From positions 1 through 58,036 of the forward strand of contig CAYQPU010000005.1 in NCBI GenBank assembly GCA_964419615.1: a stretch of DNA of 58,036 nucleotides, in the 5' to 3' direction. The stretch comes from an uncultured Methanosarcinales archaeon. Its GTDB lineage: Archaea > Nanobdellota > Nanobdellia > Woesearchaeales > JAGVZT01. The notes under the pieces were generated by a model. The model was not told the origin of the DNA. It saw only the letters and a program-made list of their open reading frames with translations, and ran no database searches. Shown in pieces: positions 10,163 through 26,924 of this stretch (position 1 is its first letter; each line of letters starts with the position of its first letter). A program made the translations under genes and the position numbers.

Positions 10163-10170
10163 TTTATAAA
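10163..10170 (+). promoter_or_regulatory. TATA box TTTATAAA for the Asn leader-asnA-asnS transcript
   Basis: Ends 22 nt upstream of the leader ATG at 10193. Confidence 0.6.
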
Positions 10171-10192
10171 TGATTTAACTCTTCTAGAAAAC

Positions 10193-10255
10193 ATGGCAAA
10201 ACAAATCAAATATCAAGTTCAAGTTTGTTTAGCTAATGCTTTTTTTAATAATTGA
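10193..10255 (+). CDS. Putative Asn-sensing leader peptide MAKQIKYQVQVCLANAFFNN* (20 aa)
   Basis: Manual translation: ends AAT AAT TGA upstream of asnA-asnS; parallels the Ser and Met leaders. Confidence 0.65.
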   Translation: MAKQIKYQVQVCLANAFFNN

Positions 10256-10316
10256 TCTGAGCAAATTGCTCTTACATTGAAAAAAAATTAAATAGGTACT
10301 TTATGGAGGTAATAAT

Positions 10317-11348
10317 ATGAAACAAACAATATTGGATGGATATGAATCAAAACTTGATTTTTTTGAGACTGAAATTGGAGTTAAGTTAATTAAGGATACA
10401 TTTGAAAAAAGGTTGGCTGAAAAATTGAGCTTACTTAGGGTTTCTGCACCAAGGTTTCTCAAAGTAGGAAAAGGATTGCAAGATGATCTTGCTGGTACAC
10501 AGGTTCCAGTTAGGTTCAAATCCAAGTTCACAGACAAAGATATTGAGATTGTACACAGTCTTGCTAAGTGGAAAAGATGGGTTTTGGGAAAATATGGGTT
10601 TAAATTAGGCACAGGACTGTACACAGACATGGATGCTGTAAGAAAAGATGAAGATGTTTCAGCTATCCACAGTATCTATGTTGATCAGTGGGACTGGGAG
10701 ATTATTCTTTCAAAAGAACAAAGGCATTTGGTTTTTCTCAAAAAAATAGTTGAGAGAATTTATGAAGCCTTGCTTGAAACAGAAGCTGTTGTGGCAGAAA
10801 AATTTCCAAGTCTAAAACCAACTTTACCCAAAGATATTCAATTTGTTCATACAGAAGAACTTGAAAAACGATTTCCAGACCTTAGCCCTAAACAAAGGGA
10901 GTATGAGATCACTAAAAAACTTGGAGCTGTGTTTTTAATTGGTATTGGTCACCCATTAGAATCTGGGGAACCTCATGATGTAAGGGCTGCAGATTATGAT
11001 GATTGGTCAACTAAGACAGAAGAAGGAAAAAAAGGATTAAACGGAGACATACTTGTGTGGGACAGTGTAAGAAAAGATTCACTTGAACTAACATCTATGG
11101 GAATTAGAGTGGATTCTAAAGCAATGGAGTTTCAGTTAAGTCATATGGGACTGGAAAAAAGAAAACTATTGGAGTTTCACAAAGGAGTTATTAAAGACAC
11201 AATTCCTTTAACAATGGGAGGAGGATTAGGTCAATCAAGAATCTGTATGCTACTTTTACAAAAAGCACACATTGCTGAAGTACAATCAAGTGTGTGGCCA
11301 GAAGAAATGGAAAAAGAATTTGAAGAGAAAAGAATTGCCATGTTGTGA
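10317..11348 (+). CDS. asnA: Aspartate-ammonia ligase (bacterial-type asparagine synthetase A)
   Basis: HSLAKWKR, YTDMDAVRKDE, YVDQWDWE, RAADYDDW, GGGLGQSR; SD GGAGGT at 10305. Confidence 0.93.
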   Translation: MKQTILDGYESKLDFFETEIGVKLIKDTFEKRLAEKLSLLRVSAPRFLKVGKGLQDDLAGTQVPVRFKSKFTDKDIEIVHSLAKWKRWVLGKYGFKLGTGLYTDMDAVRKDEDVSAIHSIYVDQWDWEIILSKEQRHLVFLKKIVERIYEALLETEAVVAEKFPSLKPTLPKDIQFVHTEELEKRFPDLSPKQREYEITKKLGAVFLIGIGHPLESGEPHDVRAADYDDWSTKTEEGKKGLNGDILVWDSVRKDSLELTSMGIRVDSKAMEFQLSHMGLEKRKLLEFHKGVIKDTIPLTMGGGLGQSRICMLLLQKAHIAEVQSSVWPEEMEKEFEEKRIAML

Positions 11349-11395
11349 AAACATTTTTAAAGGAGAAAAAAACAAGTAGTTTAGAGGTTTAAGAA

Positions 11396-12688
11396 ATGAA
11401 ATTTATCTCAATTCAAGAAGCAATAAAAAAAGGAAAAGGTAAAGTTTCTGTTAGAGGATGGGTTTATAGGGAAAGGGGCTCTAATAAGATGAAGTTCTTA
11501 GTACTTAGAGATTCAACACAGATAATACAATGCGTTCTTGCAAGAGCTGATTTTGAAGAGCAGTGGGGAGATATTGATGCACTTGGAATAGAATCATCAG
11601 TAAAAATGCAAGGACAGATAAAAAAGGATGCTAGAGCTCCAACTGGGTTTGAAATCAAAGCTGAAAAAATCGAGATTGTACAAAGTTCTGAGCCATTTCC
11701 AATAACTAAAGATCAATCTGCAGATTTTTTACTTGAAAAACGTCATCTTTGGATTAGATCAAGAAAAATGGTTGCAATTCTAAAGATAAGACATACTGTT
11801 GTTGGCGCCATACATGAGTTTTTTAGAAAAAGAGGGTATATTGAATTCAGCCCACCAATTTTCCAACCAACTCAATCAGAAGGAGGCGCAACTTTGTTTG
11901 AAGTTAAGTATTTCAAAGATAGAATGTATCTTTCTCAGACTTGGCAGTTGTATGCAGAAGCAGCAATATTTGGTTTGGAAAAAATTTATGATATGTCTCC
12001 AACTTTTAGATCCGAGAAATCTAAGACATCTAGGCATTTAACAGAGTTTTGGATGGCAGAAATGGAAGCTGCATGGATGAAATTAGATGAAGTTACAGAG
12101 GTTGCAAAAGAGGAGATTAGATTTATAATAAAGCAAGTGCTCAAGCATAACAAAGAGGAACTAAAAATTCTAAAAAGAGATGTCAAATTACTGGAGCATT
12201 ATGCTAAAGTTGATTACCCAACTATCAAGTATAAAGAAGCACTTGATATTCTAAATAAGAAATATAAAATGAAAGTGCCGTGGGGAAAGGATCTTAGAAC
12301 GATTGAGGAGGAAAAGATTGGTGATCACTTTAAATCGCCAGTTGTTGTTACTCATTTTCCAACAAAGATAATGGGTTTTTATAAGCCAAGCTCTCAGGAA
12401 GATCCAAAGGAAGCCTTGTGTTTTGATATGCTTGCTCCAGAAGGATACTGTGAGATTGTTGGAGGCTCTGAAAGAAGTCTAGACATTAAAGATATGGAAA
12501 AAAGACTTAAGGCAGATGGTGAAGATCCCAAACAATATGACTGGTATTTTGATTTAAGAAAGTATGGTTCAGTGCCACATTCTGGTTATGGTGTTGGTGT
12601 TGAAAGAGTGATTGCTTGGATATGTGGTCTTGACAATATCAAAGATGCAATTCCTTTCCCAAGGACTATGCTTAGGTACAAGCCCTAA
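11396..12688 (+). CDS. asnS: Asparagine-tRNA ligase
   Basis: OB-fold VRGWV, YLSQTWQLY, FRSEKSKTSRHLTEFWM, PHSGYGVGVER, IPFPR. Confidence 0.93.
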   Translation: MKFISIQEAIKKGKGKVSVRGWVYRERGSNKMKFLVLRDSTQIIQCVLARADFEEQWGDIDALGIESSVKMQGQIKKDARAPTGFEIKAEKIEIVQSSEPFPITKDQSADFLLEKRHLWIRSRKMVAILKIRHTVVGAIHEFFRKRGYIEFSPPIFQPTQSEGGATLFEVKYFKDRMYLSQTWQLYAEAAIFGLEKIYDMSPTFRSEKSKTSRHLTEFWMAEMEAAWMKLDEVTEVAKEEIRFIIKQVLKHNKEELKILKRDVKLLEHYAKVDYPTIKYKEALDILNKKYKMKVPWGKDLRTIEEEKIGDHFKSPVVVTHFPTKIMGFYKPSSQEDPKEALCFDMLAPEGYCEIVGGSERSLDIKDMEKRLKADGEDPKQYDWYFDLRKYGSVPHSGYGVGVERVIAWICGLDNIKDAIPFPRTMLRYKP

Positions 12689-12738
12689 CTCATAAGTTAA
12701 TAGGAACTTTTTTATATTCTCAATTGAAAAAATAGATT

Positions 12739-13668
12739 ATGATAGAGGCTTTTGCATTAATTAGAGACAAGGTAAAAAATATCCCATTAAAAAGATTTGG
12801 TGATAAGTTAGTTTGGGTTAGGTGTGTTAGGCCTTCTACTGAAGATATCGATAAACTGTCAAAAATAACAAAGATCCCTGTTGAGGAGCTATTGGAATCT
12901 GTTGAAGAGGAAGAAAGACCAAAATTAACTGAAAAAAAGTTTATTGAAATAATTTACAGGTCACCTTATGTTAAAGCAGATGATATTATCACACTTCCAG
13001 TCTATTTTTATATTTATAATAACAAGATAATTACTATAGAAAAAGAAAAAAATGAAATTTTGGATGATTTCAGTCAAAAACTTAATAAGAAAAAGTTTTT
13101 ACTCAGGAAAAGTGCAGGAAGTTTTGTTTTCTATGTTCTTGACTCAATTAATGATCTTTTTCTTAAACATATAGATAAGATTACAGAAGGTGTTGAAGTT
13201 TTTGAACAAGAAAAACAAGTTACAACTAAAGGGATGGAGAAGATTTATGAATCCAGTGTTGCATTAAGTTATTTTAATCAAGCATTACTTGCAAATATTG
13301 AAGTTTTAAATACTTTAAGAAAATGTCACCATAGATCATTAAATAAGAGAGACAGAGATTTGTTTTCAGAGCTTTATTACGATGCCTTACACATTCTTGA
13401 TACTGAAACCATCCAAAGGAATGTTATTACTAATTTGTTTAATTTACAGTCTGTTATTAGTTCAAACAAACTTAACATTTTTATGAAGAGATTAGCGAGC
13501 ATAGCTTTGATTTTTATGGTTCCAACACTAATTTCTGCAATGTACGGAATGAATTTCACCCATATACCATTAAAAGATCATCCTTATGGATTCCATATTA
13601 CAGTGATGTTAACTATCGCAGTATCAGCTCTACTCACAGTTATTTTTCTACTTGCAGACTGGATTTAG
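12739..13668 (+). CDS. corA: CorA family Mg2+/Co2+ transporter
   Basis: PTLISAMYGMNF signature with two C-terminal TM helices. Confidence 0.9.
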   Translation: MIEAFALIRDKVKNIPLKRFGDKLVWVRCVRPSTEDIDKLSKITKIPVEELLESVEEEERPKLTEKKFIEIIYRSPYVKADDIITLPVYFYIYNNKIITIEKEKNEILDDFSQKLNKKKFLLRKSAGSFVFYVLDSINDLFLKHIDKITEGVEVFEQEKQVTTKGMEKIYESSVALSYFNQALLANIEVLNTLRKCHHRSLNKRDRDLFSELYYDALHILDTETIQRNVITNLFNLQSVISSNKLNIFMKRLASIALIFMVPTLISAMYGMNFTHIPLKDHPYGFHITVMLTIAVSALLTVIFLLADWI

Positions 13669-14312
13669 AATAGATTTAGTTTTCTCTGTCCATTTTTCTT
13701 GGCAACATTTTTCCAGGACGCCCAGGATTTTCTGAATATTGGATATTTTTTGTAGTTTTTCTCTAGAAATTGTTTTGTAAAAGGATCAGCAGGGTATCCT
13801 GAACCAAATTCTATTTTATGCTTTCTTTTGAGTTTTTCTATTTCTCGATCTCTTGTAACTTTGGCTAAAATAGATGCAGCACCAACAACAATGTAGTTTT
13901 TGTCTGCTTTGTTTTCAACAACAAGTTGAGTTTCTACTTTAACGAAATCTTGCATTGTTTGCTTATATGCTTGCGTATTATTGCTAGGGCAGTCAACATA
14001 AACCAAATCCGGTTTTAGTGTATTGATAACTGCAGCAAATTTTTCAGCTTCCAAAAGATTTAAGTTGGATTTATCAGAATTAACTGCAGTATCAATTTCC
14101 TTTGGACTTACAACTGTTATTACAAAATCCTTAGCAACACTACATATACTGTTGAATAATTGTTCTCTTTTTTTTGGAGTAAGTAATTTTGAGTCTTTAA
14201 CACCTAGTTTTTCCAACTCTTTTTCAGATTTTTTGTCGATTAGTACTCCACAAATAATCATTGGCCCTATTACTGGACCACGACCCGCTTCCTCAACTCC
14301 ACAGATTAACAA
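13665..14312 (-). CDS. rnhB: Ribonuclease HII
   Basis: GV(E)EAGRGP, DSKLL, KAD, AASILAKV, GSGYPAD; TTG start at 14312 after SD GGTGAT. Confidence 0.92.
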   Translation of the reverse strand: MLICGVEEAGRGPVIGPMIICGVLIDKKSEKELEKLGVKDSKLLTPKKREQLFNSICSVAKDFVITVVSPKEIDTAVNSDKSNLNLLEAEKFAAVINTLKPDLVYVDCPSNNTQAYKQTMQDFVKVETQLVVENKADKNYIVVGAASILAKVTRDREIEKLKRKHKIEFGSGYPADPFTKQFLEKNYKKYPIFRKSWASWKNVAKKNGQRKLNLF

Positions 14313-14367
14313 TAGATCACCAAGAAAAAGAAAGACATGTGAGTTTAAAAAGTTTTTTTGTAACCCT

Positions 14368-15108
14368 TTACTCAATATTCAAGTTAAATTCTTGGCTTCC
14401 CAAGAATAGTTTATCTAAATGACCGTCTAGAATTAGTCTTGCTTGATCTTCTCCAACTTCTGTTGTAAATGTGCCTCTAAAATTTTTAATAGTAACTATG
14501 TCTTTTTCTGGATTAAGAGTTACTTTTTCCCAAATAACAATTTCACCACTAACAACACTATTAAACTCTTCAATACTTAATTGTGACACTTTTACTGTTC
14601 CTTGCATAACATGTATCTGAATATTATCTGTTGCTTTCCAATTAATTTTCACTTCATCTGACAGGTGTTTATCTAATTGTCCACTTAGTGTAAGCATTGA
14701 GTTTTTCCATTCCAAGTTACCATTAAATGCCTGTAATTCCATTGGTTCAGATAGAGTTAGAGAAATGTCTGCATCTGGAGATAAGATATCAACTTGTTTT
14801 GCTTTTATTGTGACATCAAGATTATTTATGGGTAACCCAAATTCCTGAGTAAGCATGTCTATTCTGGTGTTAATTAATGATTTTTCCACATCACCAGTTG
14901 CGGATCCATCTATTGAGTTTGACTGACCAAAAGCTTCTAAAACATCTTCTCCAGAAACAGCTTTACCAGTTACTGCTTGTTTTAAGTTACTAAAAATCGG
15001 ACTTGAAACAAATACAGCTAATAAAACAATCAATGAGACAATAACTGCTGCCACAATAATTGTTTTTGTATGAGTTTTACGCTTTGGCATTTGCGTTTTT
15101 TCAAGCAT
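14368..15108 (-). CDS. Membrane-anchored hypothetical protein
   Basis: Basic N-terminus, single TM helix, beta-rich ectodomain. Confidence 0.75.
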   Translation of the reverse strand: MLEKTQMPKRKTHTKTIIVAAVIVSLIVLLAVFVSSPIFSNLKQAVTGKAVSGEDVLEAFGQSNSIDGSATGDVEKSLINTRIDMLTQEFGLPINNLDVTIKAKQVDILSPDADISLTLSEPMELQAFNGNLEWKNSMLTLSGQLDKHLSDEVKINWKATDNIQIHVMQGTVKVSQLSIEEFNSVVSGEIVIWEKVTLNPEKDIVTIKNFRGTFTTEVGEDQARLILDGHLDKLFLGSQEFNLNIE

Positions 15109-15160
15109 AGCTTATAAATGCCAGGAATGATATTTAAATATTTCTTTAGAAATGGAAAAG

Positions 15161-15304
15161 TAGCGGGGAATGGATTTGAATTCAACGATTTTCTATAATT
15201 AATAGAGAATCTCCATTGACCTTCGGGTTTCCTAGTCCACTTATGATTTGATCACAAATGGAGCATATGAGCCCGACGGGCACTCCTGGCTGCCCTACCC
15301 CGCT
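15161..15304 (-). tRNA. Initiator tRNA-Met(CAT) with two introns: 37/38 (15229-15265) and 53/54 (15181-15212)
   Basis: A1-U72 pair; spliced AGCGGGGTAGGGCAGCCAGGAGTGCCCGTCGGGCTCATA|ACCCGAAGGTCAATGG|TTCAAATCCATTCCCCGCTA; BHB at 53/54 (CAAT/GTTG helix). Confidence 0.93.
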
Positions 15305-15326
15305 GTAAGGGGTAGGAAGGCCAGGA
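15284..15326. repeat. Inverted repeat between the tRNA-iMet 5' end and its upstream flank
   Basis: TCCTGGC-tgc-CCTACCCC pairs with GGGGTAGG-aag-GCCAGGA (8+7 bp). Confidence 0.8.
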
Positions 15327-15392
15327 TGTTTATAAATGTTGCTCAAATAGATTTCTAAATCAAAAGCCTTAAAAAGTTCCTTTTCTTTCTTT

Positions 15393-15419
15393 CAGACTAA
15401 GCCGCGGTCGCTTAGTCTG
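15393..15419. repeat. Inverted repeat between the tRNA-Ser upstream flank and its D-arm
   Basis: CAGACTAAGC / GCTTAGTCTG, perfect 10 bp. Confidence 0.7.
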
Positions 15420-15526
15420 GCCATAGCGGAGGATTGCTATCGGCTATATGATGATATGATTATCTTATATGGCCTTCAAAGATCCTCTGTGCCCTGCACA
15501 CATGAGTTCAAATCTCATCCGCGGCG
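15401..15526 (+). tRNA. tRNA-Ser(GCT) with a 37/38 intron (15440-15481)
   Basis: GCCGCGG/CCGCGGC acceptor, GAGGA/TCCTC anticodon stem, long variable arm, TTCAAAT T-loop. Confidence 0.93.
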
Positions 15527-15554
15527 TTTTTAATTACAAAGTTATATTAAGAAC

Positions 15555-16307
15555 TTACTTCCCAGTCTTTACCGCCTGATCCCATAACATCATAAAATAT
15601 TCTTTATATCTATCTGCAACAATCTGATTCTTGATCATAAAACACAATTTCTGTTCTTTTGTAAAAACAATTGTTCCAACAGTGTCTCCAAATATATATA
15701 TAAATGCAGGAGTCTTGATTCCTTCTGGCAAGTATCTTTGTTCTACATACTTTCTCTTGCCTCTGTTTTTACAAAACCATGTTTCATAATCATAGAGTAC
15801 TTTACCATATTGTTTTCTTCTGATTCTTTCTTTGTGATACTTTCTCCAATAAGCATGAAAGTAAAGGCTTGCTTCCTTAGGATAGCCAAGTACATAGTTT
15901 ATTTCCTTGTTATCATACAAAGACATATCAAAAAAAGCTTTTATTCCTCTTGGACCATGAAATACTTCTGCTTTTGTATTATCAGAGTATTTTGAAAGAT
16001 TTTCCAAAGTAGGTAATATCTCTTCTAATTTTTGTTTTTTTTGTTCTAGTTCTTTTGATTCTACTTCTAAAAATTCATGTAGCCTTTTTGGGGATACTGC
16101 ATCATATTTTTTTGTTTTACCTTCATAAACATAACTGACCAGTCCCTTTTGGATAAGTCTGTCAAGAATATCATATACTTTAGACCTTGATACTTTTGCT
16201 CTATTGATTATTGGGCCTACTGAACTAGAACCCAAGTAAAGCAAGGCTATGTACACCTTACTTTCACCTTGGGTAAGACCAATTTTTTCAAGAAAGGTCA
16301 GGTCCAT
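15555..16307 (-). CDS. TrmB-family HTH transcriptional regulator
   Basis: GLTQGESKVYIALL...SKVYDILDRLIQKGLV winged HTH plus C-terminal effector-like domain. Confidence 0.88.
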   Translation of the reverse strand: MDLTFLEKIGLTQGESKVYIALLYLGSSSVGPIINRAKVSRSKVYDILDRLIQKGLVSYVYEGKTKKYDAVSPKRLHEFLEVESKELEQKKQKLEEILPTLENLSKYSDNTKAEVFHGPRGIKAFFDMSLYDNKEINYVLGYPKEASLYFHAYWRKYHKERIRRKQYGKVLYDYETWFCKNRGKRKYVEQRYLPEGIKTPAFIYIFGDTVGTIVFTKEQKLCFMIKNQIVADRYKEYFMMLWDQAVKTGK

Positions 16308-16353
16308 TTACAGTATTAGACTTATTTAGTATATAAAACTTTATATTTATCAC

Positions 16354-16364
16354 CCCCTAAGGGG
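16354..16364. promoter_or_regulatory. GC-rich palindrome CCCC-TAA-GGGG in the divergent promoter; candidate operator
   Basis: Seen between TATA-like elements of the TrmB gene and the 16405 ORF. Confidence 0.45.
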
Positions 16365-16404
16365 CTGTTGATGATTTATATCTCTATAGTAGTTAAAATG
16401 TTTT

Positions 16405-17403
16405 ATGAAAAAGAATCAATTAAAAAAAGAAATTAAAGACAGACCAGGATTAATCAGATACGGTGGAGAACTAGAAATTGATTTATTCAACATGTCAGAA
16501 TACCCTGTCGGCTCAATTGGTTGGGAAAATGATATTGGGTTGTTCTGCTGCCAATCATTGGCTCAGAGAGTATTAGACGCACATGAGGAGTGGTATGACA
16601 AGTATGGAGATTCAGAACTATTTTGTGAAGCATATCTTGCTCAGTTATGCTTGAGACTTGAAGAAAAGGATCTTGAGCCTGCATTAATCATATCTGCACA
16701 TGATGTCCATTTATTTATGAAACTAACAAAAGGATCCCATGAAGGTAAATATGTACATTTACAAGCTTATCCTGGATTCACAAACTTAAAAGAAGACAAG
16801 ATTTTAATTGAAGCTACAATTAAAAGTGAACTTAGAGAAAATGCTGATTGTCAAGTTACTTTATGGAATAAAGAATTTTCTTTCAAAGGTTATGAAAAGA
16901 TTATAGAATTAATAGGAATTGGTATTGCAAGGTATGCCTTGGAACCAATAAGGAATCTCTTTATTGAAAACCATTTTGAAGCACTGCCACAAAAAGCAAA
17001 AAAATGTATTGAAAGTTTTGATGAAATGGTTATTAGTGGAGACTTTGACTGGGAGTACCAAAGTCAGGTCAGAGAAATTAGAAGTTTATTTTCAGAAGAA
17101 CAGTTTAATGCATTACCTGCTCAAGCAAAAGCTTGTTTTCATGCTGTTGATGTTATTGAGGCTGAAACTGGTTACTATGGAGATTATAATTATCATTTTA
17201 AAATTGGACAAGTAGGTTATCCTGGAGATCCAACTCCAGTTGGAAAAGCTGCATATTTCATTGCTGAATCACTAGATACCACAGTTAAGTTTATTGACTT
17301 TACAACAGCAAGCTTTGCAAAACAGTTAGATCCTTTGACAGTATATCTTGCTTTTCTACCAATATGGAATCAAGTGGATGAAAATGGTAAAGCTCCTAAT
17401 TGA
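16405..17403 (+). CDS. Hypothetical acidic protein (332 aa)
   Basis: Long ORF; no motif recognised. Confidence 0.75.
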   Translation: MKKNQLKKEIKDRPGLIRYGGELEIDLFNMSEYPVGSIGWENDIGLFCCQSLAQRVLDAHEEWYDKYGDSELFCEAYLAQLCLRLEEKDLEPALIISAHDVHLFMKLTKGSHEGKYVHLQAYPGFTNLKEDKILIEATIKSELRENADCQVTLWNKEFSFKGYEKIIELIGIGIARYALEPIRNLFIENHFEALPQKAKKCIESFDEMVISGDFDWEYQSQVREIRSLFSEEQFNALPAQAKACFHAVDVIEAETGYYGDYNYHFKIGQVGYPGDPTPVGKAAYFIAESLDTTVKFIDFTTASFAKQLDPLTVYLAFLPIWNQVDENGKAPN

Positions 17404-17507
17404 ATTTACAAACAATGAGATTAGAATAACAAATAATTATTTTCTGTGATCATTTACATCCTTTTTTCATTGTAATTTATTTATACTCACATTACTTTCT
17501 AAATTAT

Positions 17508-18026
17508 ATGTCATATGATATTAATCCCAAAAACCTTGTAATCAAAATTGCTGAGGGTATTACATTAAAAGAAGCTAGAACTTTGATTAACAATGGGTTA
17601 TATGCTCAACACAATATGCAAGAGATCACAATTGAAGATGATAAAAATGAGAAAGCACTTTATGTGATTGCTTTATATGAAGATAAGATTATAACTTCAG
17701 GTAGATTGTGTTTAAGTCCTCCAGAAGATAAGATTGAACAAAGTGGACTATGGGAAGAAGTTAATAAAGAAGAATGCCAAGGAAGAGTAGCTATGTCTAG
17801 AGGGATTGTTACATTAGAAGATTACTGGGGCTGTGGGATTGGAGAAGAAGTCACATTAAAAAGAGAGGAGATTGCAAGATCACATGAACATCTGGTCATC
17901 CTAGCTTTAATTAGAGACCCAGCAAAGAAACTTTACAATAATTTAGGTTATGCATTTCTAAAAAAAGACTATCATCCTGCCAATGAACTAATAGGAGTTA
18001 GAGATTTTGTCTTTAAGCATTTATAA
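17508..18026 (+). CDS. GNAT-family acetyltransferase
   Basis: VTLEDYWGCGIG motif A; LYNNLGY motif B. Confidence 0.75.
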   Translation: MSYDINPKNLVIKIAEGITLKEARTLINNGLYAQHNMQEITIEDDKNEKALYVIALYEDKIITSGRLCLSPPEDKIEQSGLWEEVNKEECQGRVAMSRGIVTLEDYWGCGIGEEVTLKREEIARSHEHLVILALIRDPAKKLYNNLGYAFLKKDYHPANELIGVRDFVFKHL

Positions 18027-18151
18027 TAGAAAATTCAACAAAATAAGAACAAATCAAAAGGTAGTTTCCTATAGTCCATAAGACAATTTTATTACATTTG
18101 TTTTTATCAAATAAACCACACCAACCTACCTTAAAAATAGAATATACAAAA

Positions 18152-19348: not shown

Positions 19349-19381
19349 AAAAAGTAAGTTTATTGTTTTGGTATATATATT

Positions 19382-19780
19382 TTATTGGTAATTGAACTGC
19401 TTTAAAAACTCAATTCTTTTTATTCCAACTAAGTTTCTCCACCAATCACCAACTGATTTAAAGTCACTTTCATCAAAAATATCATCTATAATCCCAACAG
19501 GACCAAAAGCTGCATTAGGTTTTCCCAAGTATTGTAATAAATAATTACATGCTTCCCCGAGTTTTCTCTCACTGCCTTTTACTAAAAAGTATATTTTCTC
19601 ATCCAAACTTAATATTTTTTTGCATAACATATAGGGGTATTTTTGAGAGAAATCTGATTCAGCGTTAATGAACTTTTGATACTTGTCTATTTTTACACCA
19701 CCAAGGTTAAAAATCGCATTAGCAACTCCTCCCAGTAAATTGTATTCAAGTGTTACAGTCTTATAATTATCTGATCTCAT
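19382..19780 (-). CDS. Hypothetical protein, tandem paralog A
   Basis: Aligns with 19935..20330 (LGG, YQK, GP..IDDIF, W.RN..G, C-terminal NYQ). Confidence 0.8.
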   Translation of the reverse strand: MRSDNYKTVTLEYNLLGGVANAIFNLGGVKIDKYQKFINAESDFSQKYPYMLCKKILSLDEKIYFLVKGSERKLGEACNYLLQYLGKPNAAFGPVGIIDDIFDESDFKSVGDWWRNLVGIKRIEFLKQFNYQ

Positions 19781-19934
19781 TATAAAAAAGGGAATTTAAT
19801 CATCTATTTAAACATTTATTATAAATTCTATTAAAAAGTCAGCAAGCATATAAATTTACTAAAAAACACATATAAATCAAACAAAATCCAATTAACATAA
19901 AAATTAAATTAATAAGTAAGGGCACATATATGTA

Positions 19935-20330
19935 TTACTGGTAATTTGGTTGCTCAGCAAATTCAAGTTTTCTGAACCCTATTTTATTTCTTAACCAACT
20001 CTCGACTGGTTTAGAATCATATTCCTGGAAAATGTCATCAATAAACTCTCTTGGACCATATGCACTAACAGGCATGCCAAATTGTTGGAGAACTTGTAAT
20101 GCAACGTGACGAACAAAGTCTTCTTTGCCTAGAAACATAAGATTTACATCTGTAAAATCTAGCATTCTTTGACATTCTAAGTCAGGAAATCTATGAGCTA
20201 TACTCTCGGTTACATCAACATATTTTTGGTATTCATCTGATGTTATGCCAAAAGCGCTCAAAATACCACCTAAAAACCCATGATTAAGAGGACATGTTAA
20301 CATAACTGCTTCGTAATCCTTGTTTGTCAT
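19935..20330 (-). CDS. Hypothetical protein, tandem paralog B
   Basis: Aligns with 19382..19780. Confidence 0.8.
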   Translation of the reverse strand: MTNKDYEAVMLTCPLNHGFLGGILSAFGITSDEYQKYVDVTESIAHRFPDLECQRMLDFTDVNLMFLGKEDFVRHVALQVLQQFGMPVSAYGPREFIDDIFQEYDSKPVESWLRNKIGFRKLEFAEQPNYQ

Positions 20331-20416
20331 ATTTATCAGAAAACAACTAAAACTTATAAAACTTATGAAAAAAGACTATCCATAAAGGGTCATTTCTGTT
20401 TTTTCACCAAAAAATA

Positions 20417-20424
20417 TATATAAA
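20417..20424 (+). promoter_or_regulatory. TATA box TATATAAA for the Ser leader-serS transcript
   Basis: Ends 20 nt upstream of the leader ATG at 20445. Confidence 0.6.
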
Positions 20425-20444
20425 CTAATTCAAATCCATTGATT

Positions 20445-20492
20445 ATGAATATATACATGAATCAAAGCTCAAGTTCTAGTCAATCTAGCTAA
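20445..20492 (+). CDS. Putative Ser-sensing leader peptide MNIYMNQSSSSSQSS* (15 aa)
   Basis: Manual translation: 7 of the last 8 codons are Ser (AGC TCA AGT TCT AGT caa TCT AGC); directly upstream of serS. Confidence 0.85.
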   Translation: MNIYMNQSSSSSQSS

Positions 20493-20510
20493 GACTAGAT
20501 TCATTGTTTT
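20482..20510 (+). terminator. Attenuator-like hairpin AATCTAG-ctaaga-CTAGATT over the leader stop codon, followed by CATTG and a T-tract
   Basis: Seen directly; function inferred. Confidence 0.55.
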
Positions 20511-20551
20511 TCTCAAAAAATTTATATAAGATTATAACGGAGGGATAAAAT

Positions 20552-21829
20552 ATGCTAGATATAAAATTTGTCAGGGAAAATCCTGATAAGGTAAAAGAGA
20601 ATATTAAGAAAAAATTCCAAGAAGACAAACTTCCATTAGTTGATAAACTGCTAAAAGCAGATGTTGATTATAGAGCTGTTTTAAAGGAATCAGAGAACTT
20701 AAGACACGAACGAAATAAAATTACTGCAAAGATTAGTGAACTTAAAAAACAAGGTAAAAATGCAGCAGAATTACTTGCACAAGCCAAAGAGATTCCAGAT
20801 AAAATCAAGAACCTTGAAGTAAAAAGAGATGAGCTTAAGGCAGAGATCAAAGATTATCTATATACAATTCCAAATATGATTCATGAATCTGTGCCTACTG
20901 GCAAGAATGATAAAGAAAATGTTGAAATTCAAAGAATCGGTGAACCAAAAAAGTTTGATTTTGAAGTGAAAAGTCATGTTGAGATTGCAGAAAATTTAGG
21001 GATGGCAGATTTTACAACTTCTGGGGAGATTTCAGGTAATGGTTTTTACATTCTAAAAGGTAACCTAGGACTGTTGAATATGGCTTTGATTAACTATTCA
21101 AGAGACTACATGGTAAAACAAGGTTATTTGTATGTCGAACCTCCTTTGATGATTAGGAAAAAGGTATTGACAGGTGTTTATTCAAATGAAGAGATTGATC
21201 AAATGGCCTATAAGTTAGATGGTGAAGATCTTTATCTAATTGCAACTTCTGAACATCCCATGATTGGTATGTATATTAACAAGACTCTTGATAAAAAAGA
21301 GCTGCCTGTTAAGATCACAGGATATAGTGCTTGTTTTAGAAGAGAAATTGGCAGCCATGGTATTGATGAAAAAGGACTCTATAGAACGCATCAGTTTCAC
21401 AAACAAGAAATGATTGTAATTTGTGAACCTGAAGATTCATACAAATTCTATGATGAGATGCTTGAACATTCAATTAATGTGTTCAAGGGTTTAGAAATTC
21501 CTATAAGAATTTTAGAGTGTTGTTCTGGTGACCTTGCTGACCTTAAAGCTAAAAGCTGTGATCTTGAAGCATGGTCTCCAAGGCAAAATAAATATTTTGA
21601 AATTACATCACTAACAAATATGGAAGGTTCTCAAGCCAGAAGACTTAAGATTAAAATCCAAGGCAAAGATGGCAAGTATTACGCACATACCTTGAATAAT
21701 ACTGTTATCGCCACCTCCAGAGCAATGGTTGCAATCTTAGAGAATTTCCAAAATAAAGATGGTTCAGTGACAATTCCAAAGGCCCTTAGACCTTATATGA
21801 ACGGACTTGAAAAACTAGAAAAGATGTAA
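20552..21829 (+). CDS. serS: Serine-tRNA ligase
   Basis: MLDIKFVRENP, coiled-coil arm, LIATSEHP, FRREIG, HQFHKQE, HTLNNT; SD GGAGGG at 20539. Confidence 0.96.
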   Translation: MLDIKFVRENPDKVKENIKKKFQEDKLPLVDKLLKADVDYRAVLKESENLRHERNKITAKISELKKQGKNAAELLAQAKEIPDKIKNLEVKRDELKAEIKDYLYTIPNMIHESVPTGKNDKENVEIQRIGEPKKFDFEVKSHVEIAENLGMADFTTSGEISGNGFYILKGNLGLLNMALINYSRDYMVKQGYLYVEPPLMIRKKVLTGVYSNEEIDQMAYKLDGEDLYLIATSEHPMIGMYINKTLDKKELPVKITGYSACFRREIGSHGIDEKGLYRTHQFHKQEMIVICEPEDSYKFYDEMLEHSINVFKGLEIPIRILECCSGDLADLKAKSCDLEAWSPRQNKYFEITSLTNMEGSQARRLKIKIQGKDGKYYAHTLNNTVIATSRAMVAILENFQNKDGSVTIPKALRPYMNGLEKLEKM

Positions 21830-21834
21830 TTATA

Positions 21835-22890
21835 ATGGAAATAATTGAGATTCTAAAGCAACTCATCAGGTTTAAAACAACGTCTAATAGATCTGAAGAC
21901 CTAAGTAAGATTATTGATTATGTAGAAGAATACTTTGCAAAGGATTTTGTTGTAACAAGATATGAAAGAAGAAAAAAGCATTCCCTTGTTGTTACATATG
22001 ATGAATCAATGTCTCCTGAAGTATTTTTGGTGGCACACCTTGATGTTGTTCCAGGAAAAGAAGGGCAATTTGAGGCTGTTGTTAAAGGAAATAAACTTTA
22101 TGCAAGAGGATCAAATGACAACAAAGCTAGCGCAGCAATAATTATGAAACTTATGAAAGATCTCAAAGAACAAAAACCCTCTATTGGACTAATGCTAACA
22201 ACTGATGAAGAAGTTGGAGGTATGAATGGTGTCAAACATTTAATAGAGCAAGGCTATTCTTCAAAGTTTGCAATTGTACTTGATGCTGGAGAGGATTATA
22301 ACATAATTACCAAAGAAAAAGCAGCGCTTCATCTAAAAGTTAAGGCAATAGGTAAAGCTGCACATGGTTCAAAGCCATGGAAAGGTGAGAACGCGATTGA
22401 TAAGTTGATTGATCTTTACAGAGAGCTAAAAGAGAGTTTCCCTGATTCAACAAAAGATGATAGGTGGAAAAATACAATAAGCATTGGCAGGATTGAAGGA
22501 GGAACAGCTGTAAACAAAGTTGCAGATGAAGCTCACCTTTGGATAGATATGAGATTTGTTAGTAACAAGGATAAAAATAAAATAAAACAATTAATTGAGG
22601 AGAGAGGATTTGAAGTCAAGGTTTTGACAGATGCAGGTGTGATGGATACTGATCCTAATAATGATTATATTAACAGGCTAAAAAAGTGTGCAGGAGAGGT
22701 TGCAGATAAAGACATTATTTTTGATAAAATACATGGAGCAACTGATGCAAGATACTTTGCAGATAATAATATTCCTGCTGTTATGATAATGCCAAACGGA
22801 GGGGGAACTCATGCAGATGATGAATATGTTGAGATTGATAGCATTGATGTTATTTATAAAATTTTAAAGAAGTTCCTTCTTAATTACTGA
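21835..22890 (+). CDS. M20 family metallopeptidase (ArgE/DapE-like)
   Basis: HLDVVP, RGSNDNK, DEEVGG, GKAAHGS, GATDARYF, H-x-DDE. Confidence 0.88.
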   Translation: MEIIEILKQLIRFKTTSNRSEDLSKIIDYVEEYFAKDFVVTRYERRKKHSLVVTYDESMSPEVFLVAHLDVVPGKEGQFEAVVKGNKLYARGSNDNKASAAIIMKLMKDLKEQKPSIGLMLTTDEEVGGMNGVKHLIEQGYSSKFAIVLDAGEDYNIITKEKAALHLKVKAIGKAAHGSKPWKGENAIDKLIDLYRELKESFPDSTKDDRWKNTISIGRIEGGTAVNKVADEAHLWIDMRFVSNKDKNKIKQLIEERGFEVKVLTDAGVMDTDPNNDYINRLKKCAGEVADKDIIFDKIHGATDARYFADNNIPAVMIMPNGGGTHADDEYVEIDSIDVIYKILKKFLLNY

Positions 22891-22898
22891 AAATAAAT

Positions 22899-23411
22899 CT
22901 AGACTGTTTCTTGAGTTGAGTATCTTCCTTTATATTCTGCTTTACCTTTACACCTTTCAAAAACTATCTGACAGATTTTTGTTCCAGGATGTAATGCTAG
23001 CTTCATTTTACTTAGATTAATTATTTCAAGGACTTGTTTGTTATCTGCTCCTGGGTGGATAAAATTTGCACTTACATGTATAGATAAACCCATTCTTGCA
23101 AATCTGGATCTTCCTTGTAGCCATCCACAAATGTTTGGAGATAGTGTGATGTGCTCTTGGGTGATTCCATGAACTAGTTGACCAGGATGAATAATGAAAT
23201 TATCTTTTACTTTTACAATCTCTGAATAATCGTTAGGATCAATATCATTTGTTACATCTATTGTTTTGTTGTTGGCGTTAAATACTCTGAATTCATGACC
23301 CAGACAGAGATCAACTGAACCAGCTCCTACTTGATCTTCATTAAAAGGTGTAATTTTAATGTGTCCTTTTTTGATTTCAGATAAAATCTCTTTTTTTGTT
23401 AGAATTGTCAT
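22899..23411 (-). CDS. dcd: dCTP deaminase
   Basis: GSVDLCLG, GRSRFARMG, IHPG, LEIIN, ICQIVF; start moved to MTILTKKEI. Confidence 0.9.
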   Translation of the reverse strand: MTILTKKEILSEIKKGHIKITPFNEDQVGAGSVDLCLGHEFRVFNANNKTIDVTNDIDPNDYSEIVKVKDNFIIHPGQLVHGITQEHITLSPNICGWLQGRSRFARMGLSIHVSANFIHPGADNKQVLEIINLSKMKLALHPGTKICQIVFERCKGKAEYKGRYSTQETV

Positions 23412-23484
23412 AATTAGCAGCTGAGGTCTTTTATTTAAATAATTTACCAAAATCATATTAAATGAAACAATCCTTCCACCAAAT

Positions 23485-24264
23485 ATGAAAGCAATTGATA
23501 AGCTAAAGGAGTTAACTGGACATGAAAATGTATTACTTGTTAATTCAGGTAATGGTGCAATTTTCCTAGCTTTGCTATTAGCCAAAGAAAAACATAATCA
23601 AATCTATATTCCGGATCAAGGTGGTTGGCTGTCTTACCAAACCTTTCCAAAATTGTTAAGCTTAAAGGCTTTTGAAATTAAAACAGACCATGGTTTAATC
23701 AACCCAAATCAGTTAGATGCTAAAGAAGGGGCATTAATTGCCCAAAGTATGGCAGGTTATTTTGCTGAACAATCTATCAACGAGATTCAGAAGAAATTTT
23801 TCAAAAATAATTGTTTGTTTATCCAGGATGCTTCTCCTAATCTTGGTGAGAAACTAGTCAAAACAGATATTACTGTTGGGAGTTTTGGTAAATGGAAACC
23901 AGTGGAGTTAGGTTATGGTGGGTTTATTTCTTCAGATATGGAATTAGAATTTGACAAACAATTATTAAAAATGCTGAAGTTTCAAGGTGATCAAGAGCTG
24001 CTTTTAAGAAAGATAGATCAAGCACCTGAAAGGATTACTTCATGGAAACAAACTCAAAGTAAAATAAAAAAAGATCTTAAAAGCTTTAATATTATCCACA
24101 AAGATATTCCTGGGTCTAATGTGATTGTCAAATTTGATAATGAATCTGAAAAAGAAGAAATTATTAAATATTGCACAACAAACAAATATGAATATACTAT
24201 TTGTCCCAGGTATATCAGGGTTTTAGATAATGCAATTAGTATTGAAGTAAAAAGGTTAAGGTGA
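23485..24264 (+). CDS. Short DegT/DnrJ-like PLP-fold protein
   Basis: NSGNGAI, IQDAS, SFGKWKPV..GYGG resemble fold-type I sugar aminotransferase motifs. Confidence 0.65.
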   Translation: MKAIDKLKELTGHENVLLVNSGNGAIFLALLLAKEKHNQIYIPDQGGWLSYQTFPKLLSLKAFEIKTDHGLINPNQLDAKEGALIAQSMAGYFAEQSINEIQKKFFKNNCLFIQDASPNLGEKLVKTDITVGSFGKWKPVELGYGGFISSDMELEFDKQLLKMLKFQGDQELLLRKIDQAPERITSWKQTQSKIKKDLKSFNIIHKDIPGSNVIVKFDNESEKEEIIKYCTTNKYEYTICPRYIRVLDNAISIEVKRLR

Positions 24265-24268
24265 AAAT

Positions 24269-24664
24269 ATGTTAAGAGAACCAGAAAATATGAAAGAGTT
24301 GATTTACCATACTTTTAGAGATGTTGGAGAAGGAGATGCTAGGGTCTGGGTGTTTAAGGAAATGTGCCCAGAGTGTGGTAAAGGGTTAATGGGAAAACCA
24401 GTAAAAGATGATGGTAAGGTAAAAATTCGTGCTAAGGAATATGTTTGCCCAGAATGTAGTCATAGTATTGAGAAAAAAGAGTATGAGGAAAGTCTTCAGG
24501 CTAATGTTGAGTACACATGCCCTGAATGCAAACATAAAGGTCAAACACAAGTTCCATATAAAAGAAAAAGTATCAAAGGCGTTAAAACAATTAGAGCTAA
24601 TTGTGAAAAATGTAATGCAAATATTGACATTACAAAAAAGATGAAAGTACCAAAAAAGAAATAG
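24269..24664 (+). CDS. Multi-zinc-ribbon protein
   Basis: Four CxxC pairs; basic C-terminus. Confidence 0.8.
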   Translation: MLREPENMKELIYHTFRDVGEGDARVWVFKEMCPECGKGLMGKPVKDDGKVKIRAKEYVCPECSHSIEKKEYEESLQANVEYTCPECKHKGQTQVPYKRKSIKGVKTIRANCEKCNANIDITKKMKVPKKK

Positions 24665-24672
24665 TTGGAATC

Positions 24673-25275
24673 ATGCTAAAAGGAACAATCATTAAATTTG
24701 AGAACTGGCTAAAGACAAATGTTATTCCTGAGTTTAAAATAGCATTAGATCCAATCCTCGCTCGAAAAAGACTTATTATTGCTTGCATTATTATTTTAGT
24801 GATTGGATTGTTGTTAGGTAGAATTCACAAAGCATTGCTTTTTGTACCTTTACTAATTGTAATAGCATCTTTTTCAATGGTTTATAATCTAATTATAAGA
24901 TTTAGTTTTGGTTTTGAATTGATCATGCTTGCAACCGTGCTTTGCAGTGTTGCTTATGGGCCAGTGGTTGGAGTTCTTGTTGGTTTTGTTTCATTGTTTT
25001 TTGCTGAAATAATTAGTAGTAAAATGAGTTATAATACTTTCATTAGTTTTATTGGCATTGCTGTTGTTGCTATTGTTGCTTCATCATTTAGTGGAGATAA
25101 CATATCAACGTGGGGTATAATGATGACATTCTTGTATGATATTATTATAGTACCATTATACCTTCTTTCAGGAAGTAATCCAATTAGTTCAATAATTTAC
25201 GTTGTAACGCATATTCCTTTTAATGTGTGGGTCTTCTATAGAATCGCTCCTTGGCTTCTTAGGTCAATGGTTTGA
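24673..25275 (+). CDS. Integral membrane protein, ECF S-component-like
   Basis: Six to seven TM helices; YGPVVGVLVG motif. Confidence 0.6.
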   Translation: MLKGTIIKFENWLKTNVIPEFKIALDPILARKRLIIACIIILVIGLLLGRIHKALLFVPLLIVIASFSMVYNLIIRFSFGFELIMLATVLCSVAYGPVVGVLVGFVSLFFAEIISSKMSYNTFISFIGIAVVAIVASSFSGDNISTWGIMMTFLYDIIIVPLYLLSGSNPISSIIYVVTHIPFNVWVFYRIAPWLLRSMV

Positions 25276-25314
25276 GCAAAAGATATTTAAATATACAAAA
25301 ATCTCCTAAATAGA

Positions 25315-25345
25315 GAGGTGCTGATACCTCAGAGCTTGTTCTGAG
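25315..25345 (+). promoter_or_regulatory. Two mutually exclusive hairpins between the SD and the start codon
   Basis: GAGGT/ACCTC (sequesters the SD) overlaps CTCAGA/TCTGAG. Confidence 0.4.
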
Positions 25346-26764
25346 ATGGTAAAAATGAGAATTGATGGTAACATTATTTGGGCGGGTGCTGATCCAGATC
25401 AATTTCCAAGAGAGATCTCTGGAGGAAAAGGTAATTATCTGTTTGGATTATTCAATTTTGCTCAGGAATATGAGACTGTTATTGTTCCTAATTTTTTTGT
25501 GATTCATACTCGAGCATTTATTGATAGAATAATTCCCAAGGAAATAAGTGAAGGCATAAAGTTAGTTCTACCTAATGATGTTACTGATGGTTATCAAGAT
25601 TTAAATCAACCAACTGCTGTAAGATCTTCATCTCCATTAGAAGATGGAATTCAAGCAAGTTTTGCAGGAAAATATGAGACAGTATTAGGTGTGTGCAGCA
25701 TTAAAGAACTAAAGTCAGCTATGCTCACTGTATATGACTCAACACGATCTGACAGAGTTTATGAATATGCAGAACAAATAGGTATTCCAATCAGTCTAGA
25801 TATGGCAATCATTGTTCAAGAGCAAGTTATGGATCCTGATGCTTGGGGGATTATTAATATTAATGAAGATGAATATTATGTTTCATATGAAGAAAAAGGA
25901 TTTGATGGTTTTATTAACCTATCAGTATCAAAGAAACAAATTGAAAGAGGTTTAGCTGAACGTTCAGAAGAATCAGAATTAAATATTTCTGGTGCAATTG
26001 CTAGTGCTGCAAAAGCGAGGGATTTTCTAAGGTTAGACAAAGAGGCGGAAATACAAGTTGAGTTTTTGTTAAAACAAGGCGAAAAACCGTATTTTGTTCA
26101 AATAAGACAGCTTCCCAAAATTGATCTGGATGAAACAATGGTGGAATTGGAAGTTCCACCGGGAGTTATTTATGCTGAAAGCCAGGTTTGTAATGGTATA
26201 CCTGGAACATGGGAATATCCAGTATATGTCACATTTAGTGAATCTCAATTTGAAGGGATTCTTGATCAAACAGGCCATGCGGGGATTTTAAATCGAGATG
26301 TAACAGACATAGATCGTGAAAAACTAAAAGCTTTTAGTAGTAATAGTAATCTTGCAAGCAATTCAGATTTTTTAGAATTTCGGCAAGTAATGAATAATAG
26401 AAGTTATATGTTTAGAAGCGAGCGCTTTGAAGGATTTACCGAAATATGGAGAAGAGGAGACAAGCTCTTTGGTAATTACATTCTTGTTTGTGATAAACTC
26501 GATGGTAGTCGTGAGGAAATTAGGATGAGTGATTACACTCCAAACAAAGTAGGGATTGTTACCTGTGTAGACAATAATCCATTATCACATGCAATGGTTA
26601 TTTCAAAAGAATTGGGAATTCCTGCAGTGAGTTTTGTGAGTAGTGTAATGGATATGGAATCTTTTTATAATCAAGTTGAAACAGGTGACATTGTGGTTAT
26701 TAAAAGCAATGGTAAAAAAGCTGTTGCATATATTAAAGAAAAAAGATCCAAAGAATTTTCTTAA
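25346..26764 (+). CDS. PEP synthase/PPDK-like ATP-grasp plus C-terminal phospho-His domain protein
   Basis: GGKG, AVRSSSPLEDG..ASFAG, IIVQEQV, FVQIRQL; SHAMVISKELGIPAV. Confidence 0.8.
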   Translation: MVKMRIDGNIIWAGADPDQFPREISGGKGNYLFGLFNFAQEYETVIVPNFFVIHTRAFIDRIIPKEISEGIKLVLPNDVTDGYQDLNQPTAVRSSSPLEDGIQASFAGKYETVLGVCSIKELKSAMLTVYDSTRSDRVYEYAEQIGIPISLDMAIIVQEQVMDPDAWGIININEDEYYVSYEEKGFDGFINLSVSKKQIERGLAERSEESELNISGAIASAAKARDFLRLDKEAEIQVEFLLKQGEKPYFVQIRQLPKIDLDETMVELEVPPGVIYAESQVCNGIPGTWEYPVYVTFSESQFEGILDQTGHAGILNRDVTDIDREKLKAFSSNSNLASNSDFLEFRQVMNNRSYMFRSERFEGFTEIWRRGDKLFGNYILVCDKLDGSREEIRMSDYTPNKVGIVTCVDNNPLSHAMVISKELGIPAVSFVSSVMDMESFYNQVETGDIVVIKSNGKKAVAYIKEKRSKEFS

Positions 26765-26779
26765 AAACATAGCAAACAC

Positions 26780-26786
26780 TTAAATA
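26780..26786 (+). promoter_or_regulatory. TATA box TTAAATA for the Met leader-metG transcript
   Basis: Ends 22 nt upstream of the leader ATG at 26809. Confidence 0.55.
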
Positions 26787-26808
26787 TCTAAATTCATTCC
26801 TAATTGCT

Positions 26809-26868
26809 ATGAAATCAAACCATAGCTTAAAAATGATGACTTCTATGCTAGCTATGCGAATGCGGTAA
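26809..26868 (+). CDS. Putative Met-sensing leader peptide MKSNHSLKMMTSMLAMRMR* (19 aa)
   Basis: Manual translation: 5 internal Met codons in the last 11 codons; directly upstream of metG. Confidence 0.85.
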   Translation: MKSNHSLKMMTSMLAMRMR

Positions 26869-26924
26869 AACCATTCATTGTTTACTAAAATTTATATATT
26901 ATCAATTTTTAGGAGGTAATTAAA

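Follow-up and report, generated by a model that had tools for sequence, protein, structure and literature searches.

Control of gene expression through a leader peptide is a textbook bacterial mechanism. In the classical biosynthetic attenuators (trpL, hisL, thrL, leuL, and ilvL), regulatory codon runs lie near the end of a short leader open reading frame (ORF), and control relies on bacterial intrinsic termination. In tnaC and pyrBI/pyrE, a ribosome at the 3' end of the leader ORF physically obstructs a terminator hairpin or the site at which a termination factor loads; these systems respond to free tryptophan or to UTP-dependent polymerase pausing instead of to runs of cognate codons. T-box riboswitches are not translated and bind uncharged tRNA directly. 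Here, we describe short leader ORFs in a 58,036-nucleotide stretch of archaeal DNA (contig CAYQPU010000005.1 of assembly GCA_964419615.1, referred to as the window at its full length). They precede asnA-asnS, serS, and metG, and their 3' ends are enriched in the amino acid that the downstream enzyme makes or charges.

Leader-peptide control of aminoacyl-tRNA synthetase genes is exemplified by E. coli pheM-pheST and by the predicted leuS and trpS attenuators of Streptomyces, and T-boxes are used before synthetase genes in Firmicutes (PMC1262725). A further system is the "Cys ribulon" of mycobacteria. As outlined in the account of Canestrari et al. (bioRxiv 10.1101/834739), it consists of leaderless poly-Cys short ORFs in which stalled ribosomes block structures that sequester the downstream ribosome-binding site (RBS).

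The archaeal leaders resemble each of these systems in part. With pheM-pheST and the Streptomyces leuS and trpS attenuators they share a leader peptide rich in the cognate amino acid before a synthetase gene. That type, however, has a leader with a Shine-Dalgarno (SD) sequence, mutually exclusive terminator and antiterminator hairpins, and poly-U, whereas here the leader is predicted to be leaderless, a single small hairpin is present, and no alternative fold was found. The same differences separate the archaeal leaders from the classical attenuators, which they resemble in that the asnA, lysW, and ppc-aspC loci are biosynthetic. Like T-boxes, they would provide one cis element per synthetase gene, specific for the charging state of the cognate tRNA; unlike T-boxes, they contain a translated ORF, as predicted from its geometry, and give no T-box match. 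As in tnaC and pyrBI/pyrE, a ribosome at the leader 3' end would serve as a physical block. Similarities to the Cys ribulon are the short ORF at the 5' end of a leaderless mRNA (predicted here), the consecutive cognate codons, and the occurrence at several loci. The Cys ribulon is bacterial and concerns one amino acid (Cys) and Cys metabolic genes, whereas the present elements are archaeal, have TATA promoters, and cover at least six amino acids, each matched to its own synthetase; their stop codon lies in a hairpin, they belong to a cassette with a (T)CATTG motif, and they often have a second promoter. RBS sequestration of the Cys ribulon type is weakly supported here. Taken together, the archaeal leaders differ from the known systems in the domain, the predicted leaderless start, the stop codon in a hairpin, the multi-operon cassette with its own amino acid at each operon, and the internal second promoter; the start, the placement of the stop, and the second promoter have no counterpart in the bacterial models.

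We consider it probable that one DPANN family has set a portable cassette before at least eight operons, each copy tuned to another amino acid. If true, this would be the first leader-peptide attenuation in the archaeal domain, acting on leaderless mRNA with archaeal promoters. Archaea-directed full-text literature searches in a corpus of about 8.4 million papers and preprints found no case of archaeal leader-peptide attenuation, and an earlier sequence-only reading of this DNA, which had proposed the three leaders of the window, likewise knew of no described example for DPANN synthetases. The case is clean and internally replicated, with six amino acids each in front of the right enzyme, and it makes testable whether archaea use the ribosome as a metabolite gauge. 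Furthermore, it offers a first idea of how reduced, host-dependent DPANN cells may match synthetase levels to amino-acid supply. The cassette comprises about 130 nt and is thus short enough to be moved into Haloferax, Methanococcus, or Thermococcus reporters.

The window is an entire 58-kb contig of a genome of 1.48 Mb (99% complete, 32% GC), termed G000; its congener is termed G001. Archaeal DnaG, Trm14, an MJ-type S-layer protein, and a PGF-pre-PGF domain were found in the genome. These marker proteins and the small genome agree with the sequence-only label of a DPANN-type archaeon, and a bacterial origin was rejected on the basis of the archaeal markers. Window DNA was contained in eight sequence runs, all of them DNA runs from marine or seawater metagenomes. 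Genes (1,533) were called by a simple longest-ORF procedure, and 1,493 ATG-started ORFs of 5–45 codons in upstream intergenic DNA served as the set of short ORFs. Synthetase genes were located genome-wide with Pfam models and named with NCBIfam. Forty relatives were compared, specifically the seven other genomes of the family and 33 genomes that each stand for another family of the order. Of the forty, G006 supplied just one thrS and one asnA example, and no conclusion rests on it. Anatomy statistics refer to 27 leaders pooled from G000 and its relatives, which are kin sequences.

All three leaders claimed by the sequence-only reading are present in the window, at slightly corrected coordinates. 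The anatomy it had described, with a TATA box at leaderless distance, a hairpin at the stop, CATTG, and a strong SD, was correct and turned out to be a shared cassette. Whole-genome family searches placed no further synthetase locus on the contig, so that the three loci are indeed all of those in the window. In each, the leader ATG lies 20–22 nt 3' of a TATA box. A second TATA-like box, which had been overlooked, lies 22–26 nt 5' of each main ATG.

At the asnA-asnS locus (all features given here and for the two other loci are on the + strand), the first TATA box, P1 (10163..10170), lies 22 nt before the ATG of the leader ORF (10193..10255), a leaderless geometry. This ORF has 20 codons and ends in Asn-Ala-Phe-Phe-Asn-Asn-stop. 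The hairpin GAGCA-AAT-TGCTC (10259..10271; −5.3 kcal/mol) follows directly 3' of the stop, and is itself followed by CATTG (10275..10279), the second TATA-like box (10287..10294; 22 nt before the asnA ATG), and the SD sequence GGAGG (10305..10309). The operon comprises asnA, encoding asparagine synthetase A (10317..11348; Pfam AsnA), and asnS, encoding asparaginyl-tRNA synthetase (11396..12688; Pfam tRNA-synt_2 plus tRNA_anti-codon).

The serS leader ORF (20445..20492) starts 20 nt after its P1 TATA box (20417..20424) and has 15 codons, with seven Ser among the last nine. The Ser codons used are AGC, TCA, AGT, and TCT, hence both Ser codon boxes are represented, and the tail is the top single-amino-acid tail among the 1,493 intergenic short ORFs. 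The stop codon lies in the loop of an ATCTAG/CTAGAT hairpin (20483..20500; −5.7 kcal/mol). TCATTG (20501..20506) and TTTTT (20507..20511) follow, then the second TATA box (20521..20528; 23 nt before the serS ATG), the SD sequence GGAGGG (20539..20544), and the gene for seryl-tRNA synthetase (SerRS; 20552..21829; Pfam Seryl_tRNA_N plus tRNA-synt_2b).

The metG leader ORF (26809..26868) lies 21 nt after a P1 TATA-like box (26780..26787). It has 19 codons, and five internal Met are found in the last 11. A GAATG/CATTC hairpin around the stop (26858..26876; −4.6 kcal/mol) overlaps TCATTG (26875..26880). Further downstream are the second TATA box (26891..26898; 26 nt before the metG ATG), the SD sequence AGGAGGT (26911..26917), and the gene for a methionyl-tRNA synthetase with a C-terminal tRNA-binding domain (26925..28991; Pfam tRNA-synt_1g, Anticodon_3, and tRNA_bind). 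An A-rich stretch plus a TATA box precedes the main ATG in all five metG loci that have a leader.

Cognate enrichment was also looked for before the other synthetase genes and their orthologues, as expected from the sequence-only reading, and was found before ileS, valS, and thrS as well as in relatives of the family. These three genes lie on other contigs of G000, and the layout upstream of each is the same as in the window. Their leader ORFs have 13 codons ending in ..IISIII (ileS), nine codons ending in ..VVVVVA (valS), and 19 codons ending in ..TTTTTTA (thrS). Two weaker leaders were retrieved with a pattern scan for a TATA box, short ORF, stop, and CATTG. The first, a 13-codon ORF with three Lys, precedes the lysW operon, which also holds a homocitrate-synthase-like gene and two ORFs that are LysX-type as judged by eye. 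The second, a 15-codon ORF ending in ..NNTDCDSQ, precedes the ppc-aspC-aspS operon, which encodes archaeal phosphoenolpyruvate carboxylase, an aminotransferase, and aspartyl-tRNA synthetase. The clear leaders matched the NCBIfam-named enzyme in six of six cases.

The sequence-only reading had held that three matches out of three made chance unlikely, and the genome-wide counts bear this out. Fourteen synthetase-type genes had an upstream space of 40 nt or more and were tested. At least four cognate residues in the last 10 codons of a short ORF were found for five of them, and at least three for seven. Random gene sets with the same amino-acid labels gave 0.08 and 0.34, respectively, and the observed values were reached in 0 of 20,000 randomisations; label shuffling among the synthetase genes also gave 0 of 20,000. 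The strongest homo-amino-acid tails of all short ORFs are those of serS and thrS, followed by valS and ileS among a few chance Leu-, Ile-, or Lys-rich ORFs. Genome-wide, 13 loci fit the succession of TATA box, leaderless short ORF, 25–130 nt, SD, and gene, and the strongest single-amino-acid tails among these belong to serS, thrS, asnA, and metG.

The order of elements in the cassette is TATA box, about 22 nt, ATG, cognate run, stop hairpin, (T)CATTG, CU-rich tract, often a second TATA box, SD, and gene. The leader ORFs have 9–24 codons, and the runs comprise five to seven consecutive Thr, Val, Ser, or Ile, or four to six clustered Met. In this mostly leaderless genome, first genes bearing an SD sequence are the exception. 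Of the 679 SD-less genes preceded by 80 nt or more, 40% show a TATA box that ends 20–27 nt before the ATG. The leaders have the same spacing as these leaderless genes; when a strict pattern was applied, 18 of the 27 had the P1 TATA box at a distance of 18–28 nt from their ATG. Judged by this spacing, the leader ORFs would start at the 5' end of their transcripts. In all but one of the 27 leaders, zero or one codon separates the cognate run from the stop; in the metG leader of G001, by contrast, the frame continues through the TCATTG motif. For a 31-nt segment around the leader stop codon, the mean folding energy was −5.5 kcal/mol, compared to −1.5 kcal/mol at ordinary stops (n = 701) and −1.8 kcal/mol at the stops of other short ORFs (n = 1,021; Mann-Whitney P about 1e-11, with leaders that are kin). 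Often, the stop occupies a loop of 4 nt, with the 5' arm made up of the last sense codons.

(T)CATTG is found 3' of the hairpin in most leaders, across amino acids and genera. Several roles for this motif were tried and rejected. As a general terminator motif, TCATTGT is not enriched (55 intergenic copies versus 45 ± 19 for 7-mers of the same composition). Antisense readings that begin at the CAT of TCATTG, whether as an ORF or as a promoter, were inconsistent in their spacing to any TATA box, and a second upstream ORF starting at the TTG within CATTG differed in length and end point between loci (both by eye). Base pairing between UCAU and the 5' AUG of the same leader was too weak (helices averaging 3.5 bp with the own partner versus 3.2 bp in cross comparisons; permutation P = 0.048). 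Pairing with the main AUG showed no covariation, and the motif is kept at serS, ileS, lysW, and ppc, which start differently.

A pyrimidine-rich tract, usually with CT or TC steps, follows 3' of (T)CATTG. T3–T6 tracts lie 10–25 nt after the leader stop. Most loci have such a U-rich tract, in interrupted form; asnA lacks it and has an A-run after CATTG. In a scan of the window for consensus terminators, no leader locus was flagged. Twelve of the 27 loci, namely all valS, all metG, two ileS, serS, and asnA, have the second TATA box 21–26 nt ahead of the main ATG, and in thrS the distance is 34–40 nt. As the SD lies between this box and the expected start site, it would be present only on transcripts begun at the leader promoter. 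The arrangement suggests a leaderless basal transcript from the second promoter plus an SD-led read-through transcript. As a separate observation, the metG leader region of G003 (L133:1211-1488) has a 203-nt spacer between the Met leader and the second TATA box; this spacer folds very strongly (−88.8 kcal/mol for the whole leader transcript) and looks like an inserted structured element.

Leaders of this kind are conserved in relatives. Thr-run leaders precede thrS in five other genera of the family and probably also in two other families. A V5 run precedes valS in two other family genomes. Ile runs precede ileS in four, with a fifth being weak, and Met-rich leaders with the common core ..SML(A/V)M.M.. 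precede metG in four. One family genome has a leuS leader ending in five Leu, and one genome has an aspS leader ending in ..DADL. For asnA, a leader was found in four of the four family genomes that have the gene; it ends in Asn-Asn, or in one case in Asn-Asn-Gln, and the stems differ in sequence with pairing kept. Between G000 and G001, the N-terminal leader halves differ by amino-acid changes, whereas the cognate runs show synonymous and non-synonymous changes of two and zero (thrS) and three and zero (valS). Judged by these substitutions, selection acts on the codon identity of the run.

The distribution also has limits. Among metagenomic thrS loci with 52–68% protein identity, 78 of 79 had at most two Thr in any upstream ORF tail and one had a possible Thr leader; the Thr leader is therefore lineage-restricted and not general to DNA upstream of thrS. 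No such leader ORF was found in the serS loci of 29 relatives, and those genes are mostly leaderless. The SerRS of the window shares 63–75% identity with enzymes of other families of the order, but just about 45% with those of its own family, which suggests a lateral replacement of serS. Since the gene appears to have been replaced laterally and bears the family cassette, the cassette seems to be quickly recruited.

We are fairly confident that the leaders act as ribosome-read gauges, in which stalled ribosomes sense charged tRNA and raise expression. Specifically, the archaeal TATA promoter would yield an mRNA whose 5' end coincides with the leader AUG or lies no more than a few bases from it. 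The run encodes the amino acid handled by the downstream gene, which either charges it (Ser, Met, Ile, Val, and Thr) or makes it (Asn, and probably Lys and Asp). The short GC-rich hairpin includes the last sense codons and the stop, and is followed by (U)CAUUG and by a CU-rich tract that is complementary to the SD/AUG of the main gene 50–90 nt downstream. With plentiful cognate aminoacyl-tRNA, the leader would be cleared quickly, the hairpin and the anti-RBS pairing would form, and the read-through transcript would be poorly expressed. With scarce cognate aminoacyl-tRNA, ribosomes would queue on the run, and the leading one would cover the hairpin and CAUUG and keep both unfolded, so that expression of the SD-led gene would rise. 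At several loci, the second promoter near the gene would provide a constitutive leaderless basal transcript.

The ribosome is proposed as the reader because the start is kept at TATA distance, the stop is kept, synonymous codons for different tRNAs are mixed, and all but the run drifts. Expression is proposed to increase, rather than fall, as charged tRNA runs short, since this sign suits asnA and lysW, which are biosynthetic. As output step, unmasking of the RBS is placed slightly ahead of suppression of a hairpin-dependent terminator, because the steady-state picture, in which queued ribosomes hold the hairpin and CAUUG open for most of the transcript's life, fits best. The mycobacterial Cys ribulon provides an experimental precedent, and some sequence features agree with unmasking. 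The best complement to a locus's own RBS lies 12–28 nt after the leader stop, and the tracts after the hairpin are more complementary to SD or SD-AUG than T-rich tracts after ordinary genes are (P = 0.002 to 5e-5). For valS, the pairing between anti-SD and SD shows one double compensatory change between genera by eye. A further possible pairing, also seen by eye, joins the T-rich tract after CATTG to an A-rich or complementary stretch that lies further 3', immediately ahead of the second TATA box or the SD. It was noted for thrS in G000, G001, G003, G006, and G007 and for lysW and ppc in G000; the sequences vary between genomes and the pairing is kept.

A number of results weigh against the proposed gauge. 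The duplexes between the post-stop region and the RBS are weak (mean z −0.56 versus shuffles) and unconvincing for ileS and metG. Modelled ribosome occupancy left the predicted RBS accessibility unchanged at 37 or 15 °C (P about 0.47). On thrS and metG leader alignments, RNAalifold predicted nothing beyond the stop hairpin or a weak helix inside the ORF, and it revealed neither covariation or compensatory changes nor an alternative fold. A ribosome that stalls on the first codon of a run of five to six codons is short of the hairpin, and a second promoter would bypass control of the leader transcript. The Asn (two to three codons), Lys (three), and Asp (two) leaders are far weaker than the others. 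For the remaining synthetase genes, half of the total, no convincing leader was found in the upstream DNA; some of these lie inside operons, and the genes for lysyl-tRNA synthetase (LysRS) and glutamyl-tRNA synthetase are plainly leaderless. In addition, P values that pool related sequences are overstated because the sequences are kin, and no RNA run is listed among those that contain window DNA.

A possible, but rather doubtful, alternative is transcription attenuation with the same sensor. The stop hairpin and the interrupted U-rich tract would then form a conditional terminator, either intrinsic or assisted by aCPSF1/FttA, and a ribosome parked on the last cognate codons would block it, so that RNA polymerase reads into the SD-led gene. 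In this genome, T5 tracts concentrate 0–20 nt after ordinary stop codons, from which oligo-T is taken to be its terminator signal, and the leaders have T3–T6 tracts 10–25 nt after their stop. The hairpin at leader stops, not found at ordinary stops, is as expected if a weak U tract needs a hairpin, and an SD between the second TATA box and the ATG is useful only on read-through transcripts. The genome also encodes aCPSF1, which in archaea reportedly ends transcription genome-wide through 3'-end cleavage (PMC7515710). On the other hand, the RNAalifold alignments of thrS and metG revealed no antiterminator alternative, the Cs inside the T tracts suit an anti-SD better than a terminator, and asnA has an A-run instead of a T-run after CATTG. 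Furthermore, in a co-transcriptional race a fast ribosome melts the hairpin more reliably than a stalled one. Such a race predicts expression when the amino acid is replete, which is the wrong sign for asnA and lysW.

The leaders could also be independent mini-genes or promoter-proximal transcripts that have no link in cis to the synthetase genes, which would be driven by the second promoter alone. The second TATA box at leaderless distance in 12 of the 27 loci and the T-rich tracts, which follow leaders as they follow ordinary genes, would fit this view. It leaves unaccounted for, however, that the amino acid matches the downstream enzyme, that the run is kept while the rest of the peptide drifts, and that the main genes have a strong SD in a mostly leaderless genome. 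Moreover, in one family genome the stop of the asnA leader and the main ATG are only 34 nt apart, too short a distance for a second promoter. We regard this explanation as very unlikely.

Reading of the element by a protein or a tRNA, rather than by a ribosome, appears scarcely tenable. Either a factor would bind TCATTG as DNA (AsnC in the case of asnA), or uncharged tRNA would bind the codon run in a T-box-like manner. This would fit with the conservation of (T)CATTG across loci and genera, and an AsnC-family gene does adjoin asnA. However, neither a T-box nor any other Rfam family matched: the window had no hit that reached the gathering score, and the three leader regions had none at E values of up to 10. 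T-boxes were rejected on this basis. Within the runs, synonymous codons that require different tRNAs occur together. Between TCATTG and the second TATA box lie 7 to 31 nt, a variable distance unlike that of an operator, and one shared DNA site cannot confer amino-acid specificity on eight loci. Furthermore, two of the conserved features belong to an ORF, namely its start at TATA distance and its stop within the hairpin. Lastly, Ile-, Leu-, Lys-, and Asn-rich short ORFs do arise by chance in the AT-rich intergenic DNA of a 32% GC genome, and the Asn, Lys, and Asp leaders are unremarkable on composition alone, but chance as an overall explanation is practically negligible and was rejected for the Ser, Thr, Val, Ile, and Met leaders by the randomisation and conservation tests, given that such composition does not favour Ser, Thr, Val, or Met runs and that the leaders are kept across genera where orthologous controls are without them.

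The AsnC/Lrp-family regulator gene next to asnA (9646..10086, − strand; Pfam AsnC_trans_reg plus HTH_24/HTH_AsnC-type) is divergent from the asnA leader, and a 230-bp intergenic region is common to both. The asnC-asnA neighbourhood of E. coli has the same arrangement. The regulator is probably a second, protein-based layer of asnA control, and asnA may thus be under both protein and ribosome control.

Some further observations concern other synthetase genes of G000. Upstream of leuS (L003, contig 3; L127 in G001), an 11–13 codon ORF with the sequence ..FER(L/F)KPLL. and two to three Leu is kept in both congeners; it sits between leuS and an upstream gene that is RpoN-like by eye, and may be a degenerate Leu leader. 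On contig 38, a 789-aa protein (L004) matches only the C-terminal half of archaeal leucyl-tRNA synthetase (LeuRS) models, well under the cut-off, and may be a LeuRS-derived paralogue. About 60–230 nt upstream of argS (L009, contig 42) lies a GC-rich element with a long inverted repeat, AAGAGGAGCC ... GGGGCTCCTCTT, followed by CATTG. A Phe-rich short ORF on contig 15 precedes the gene for a 240-aa protein without a Pfam family. The class II LysRS on contig 1 (L015) has 917 aa, with about 430 residues beyond the match to the lysS model (residues 5–482). One of two genes on contig 3 that resemble tryptophanyl-tRNA synthetase and lie about 2 kb apart (L008/L007) encodes an N-terminal extension of about 225 aa.

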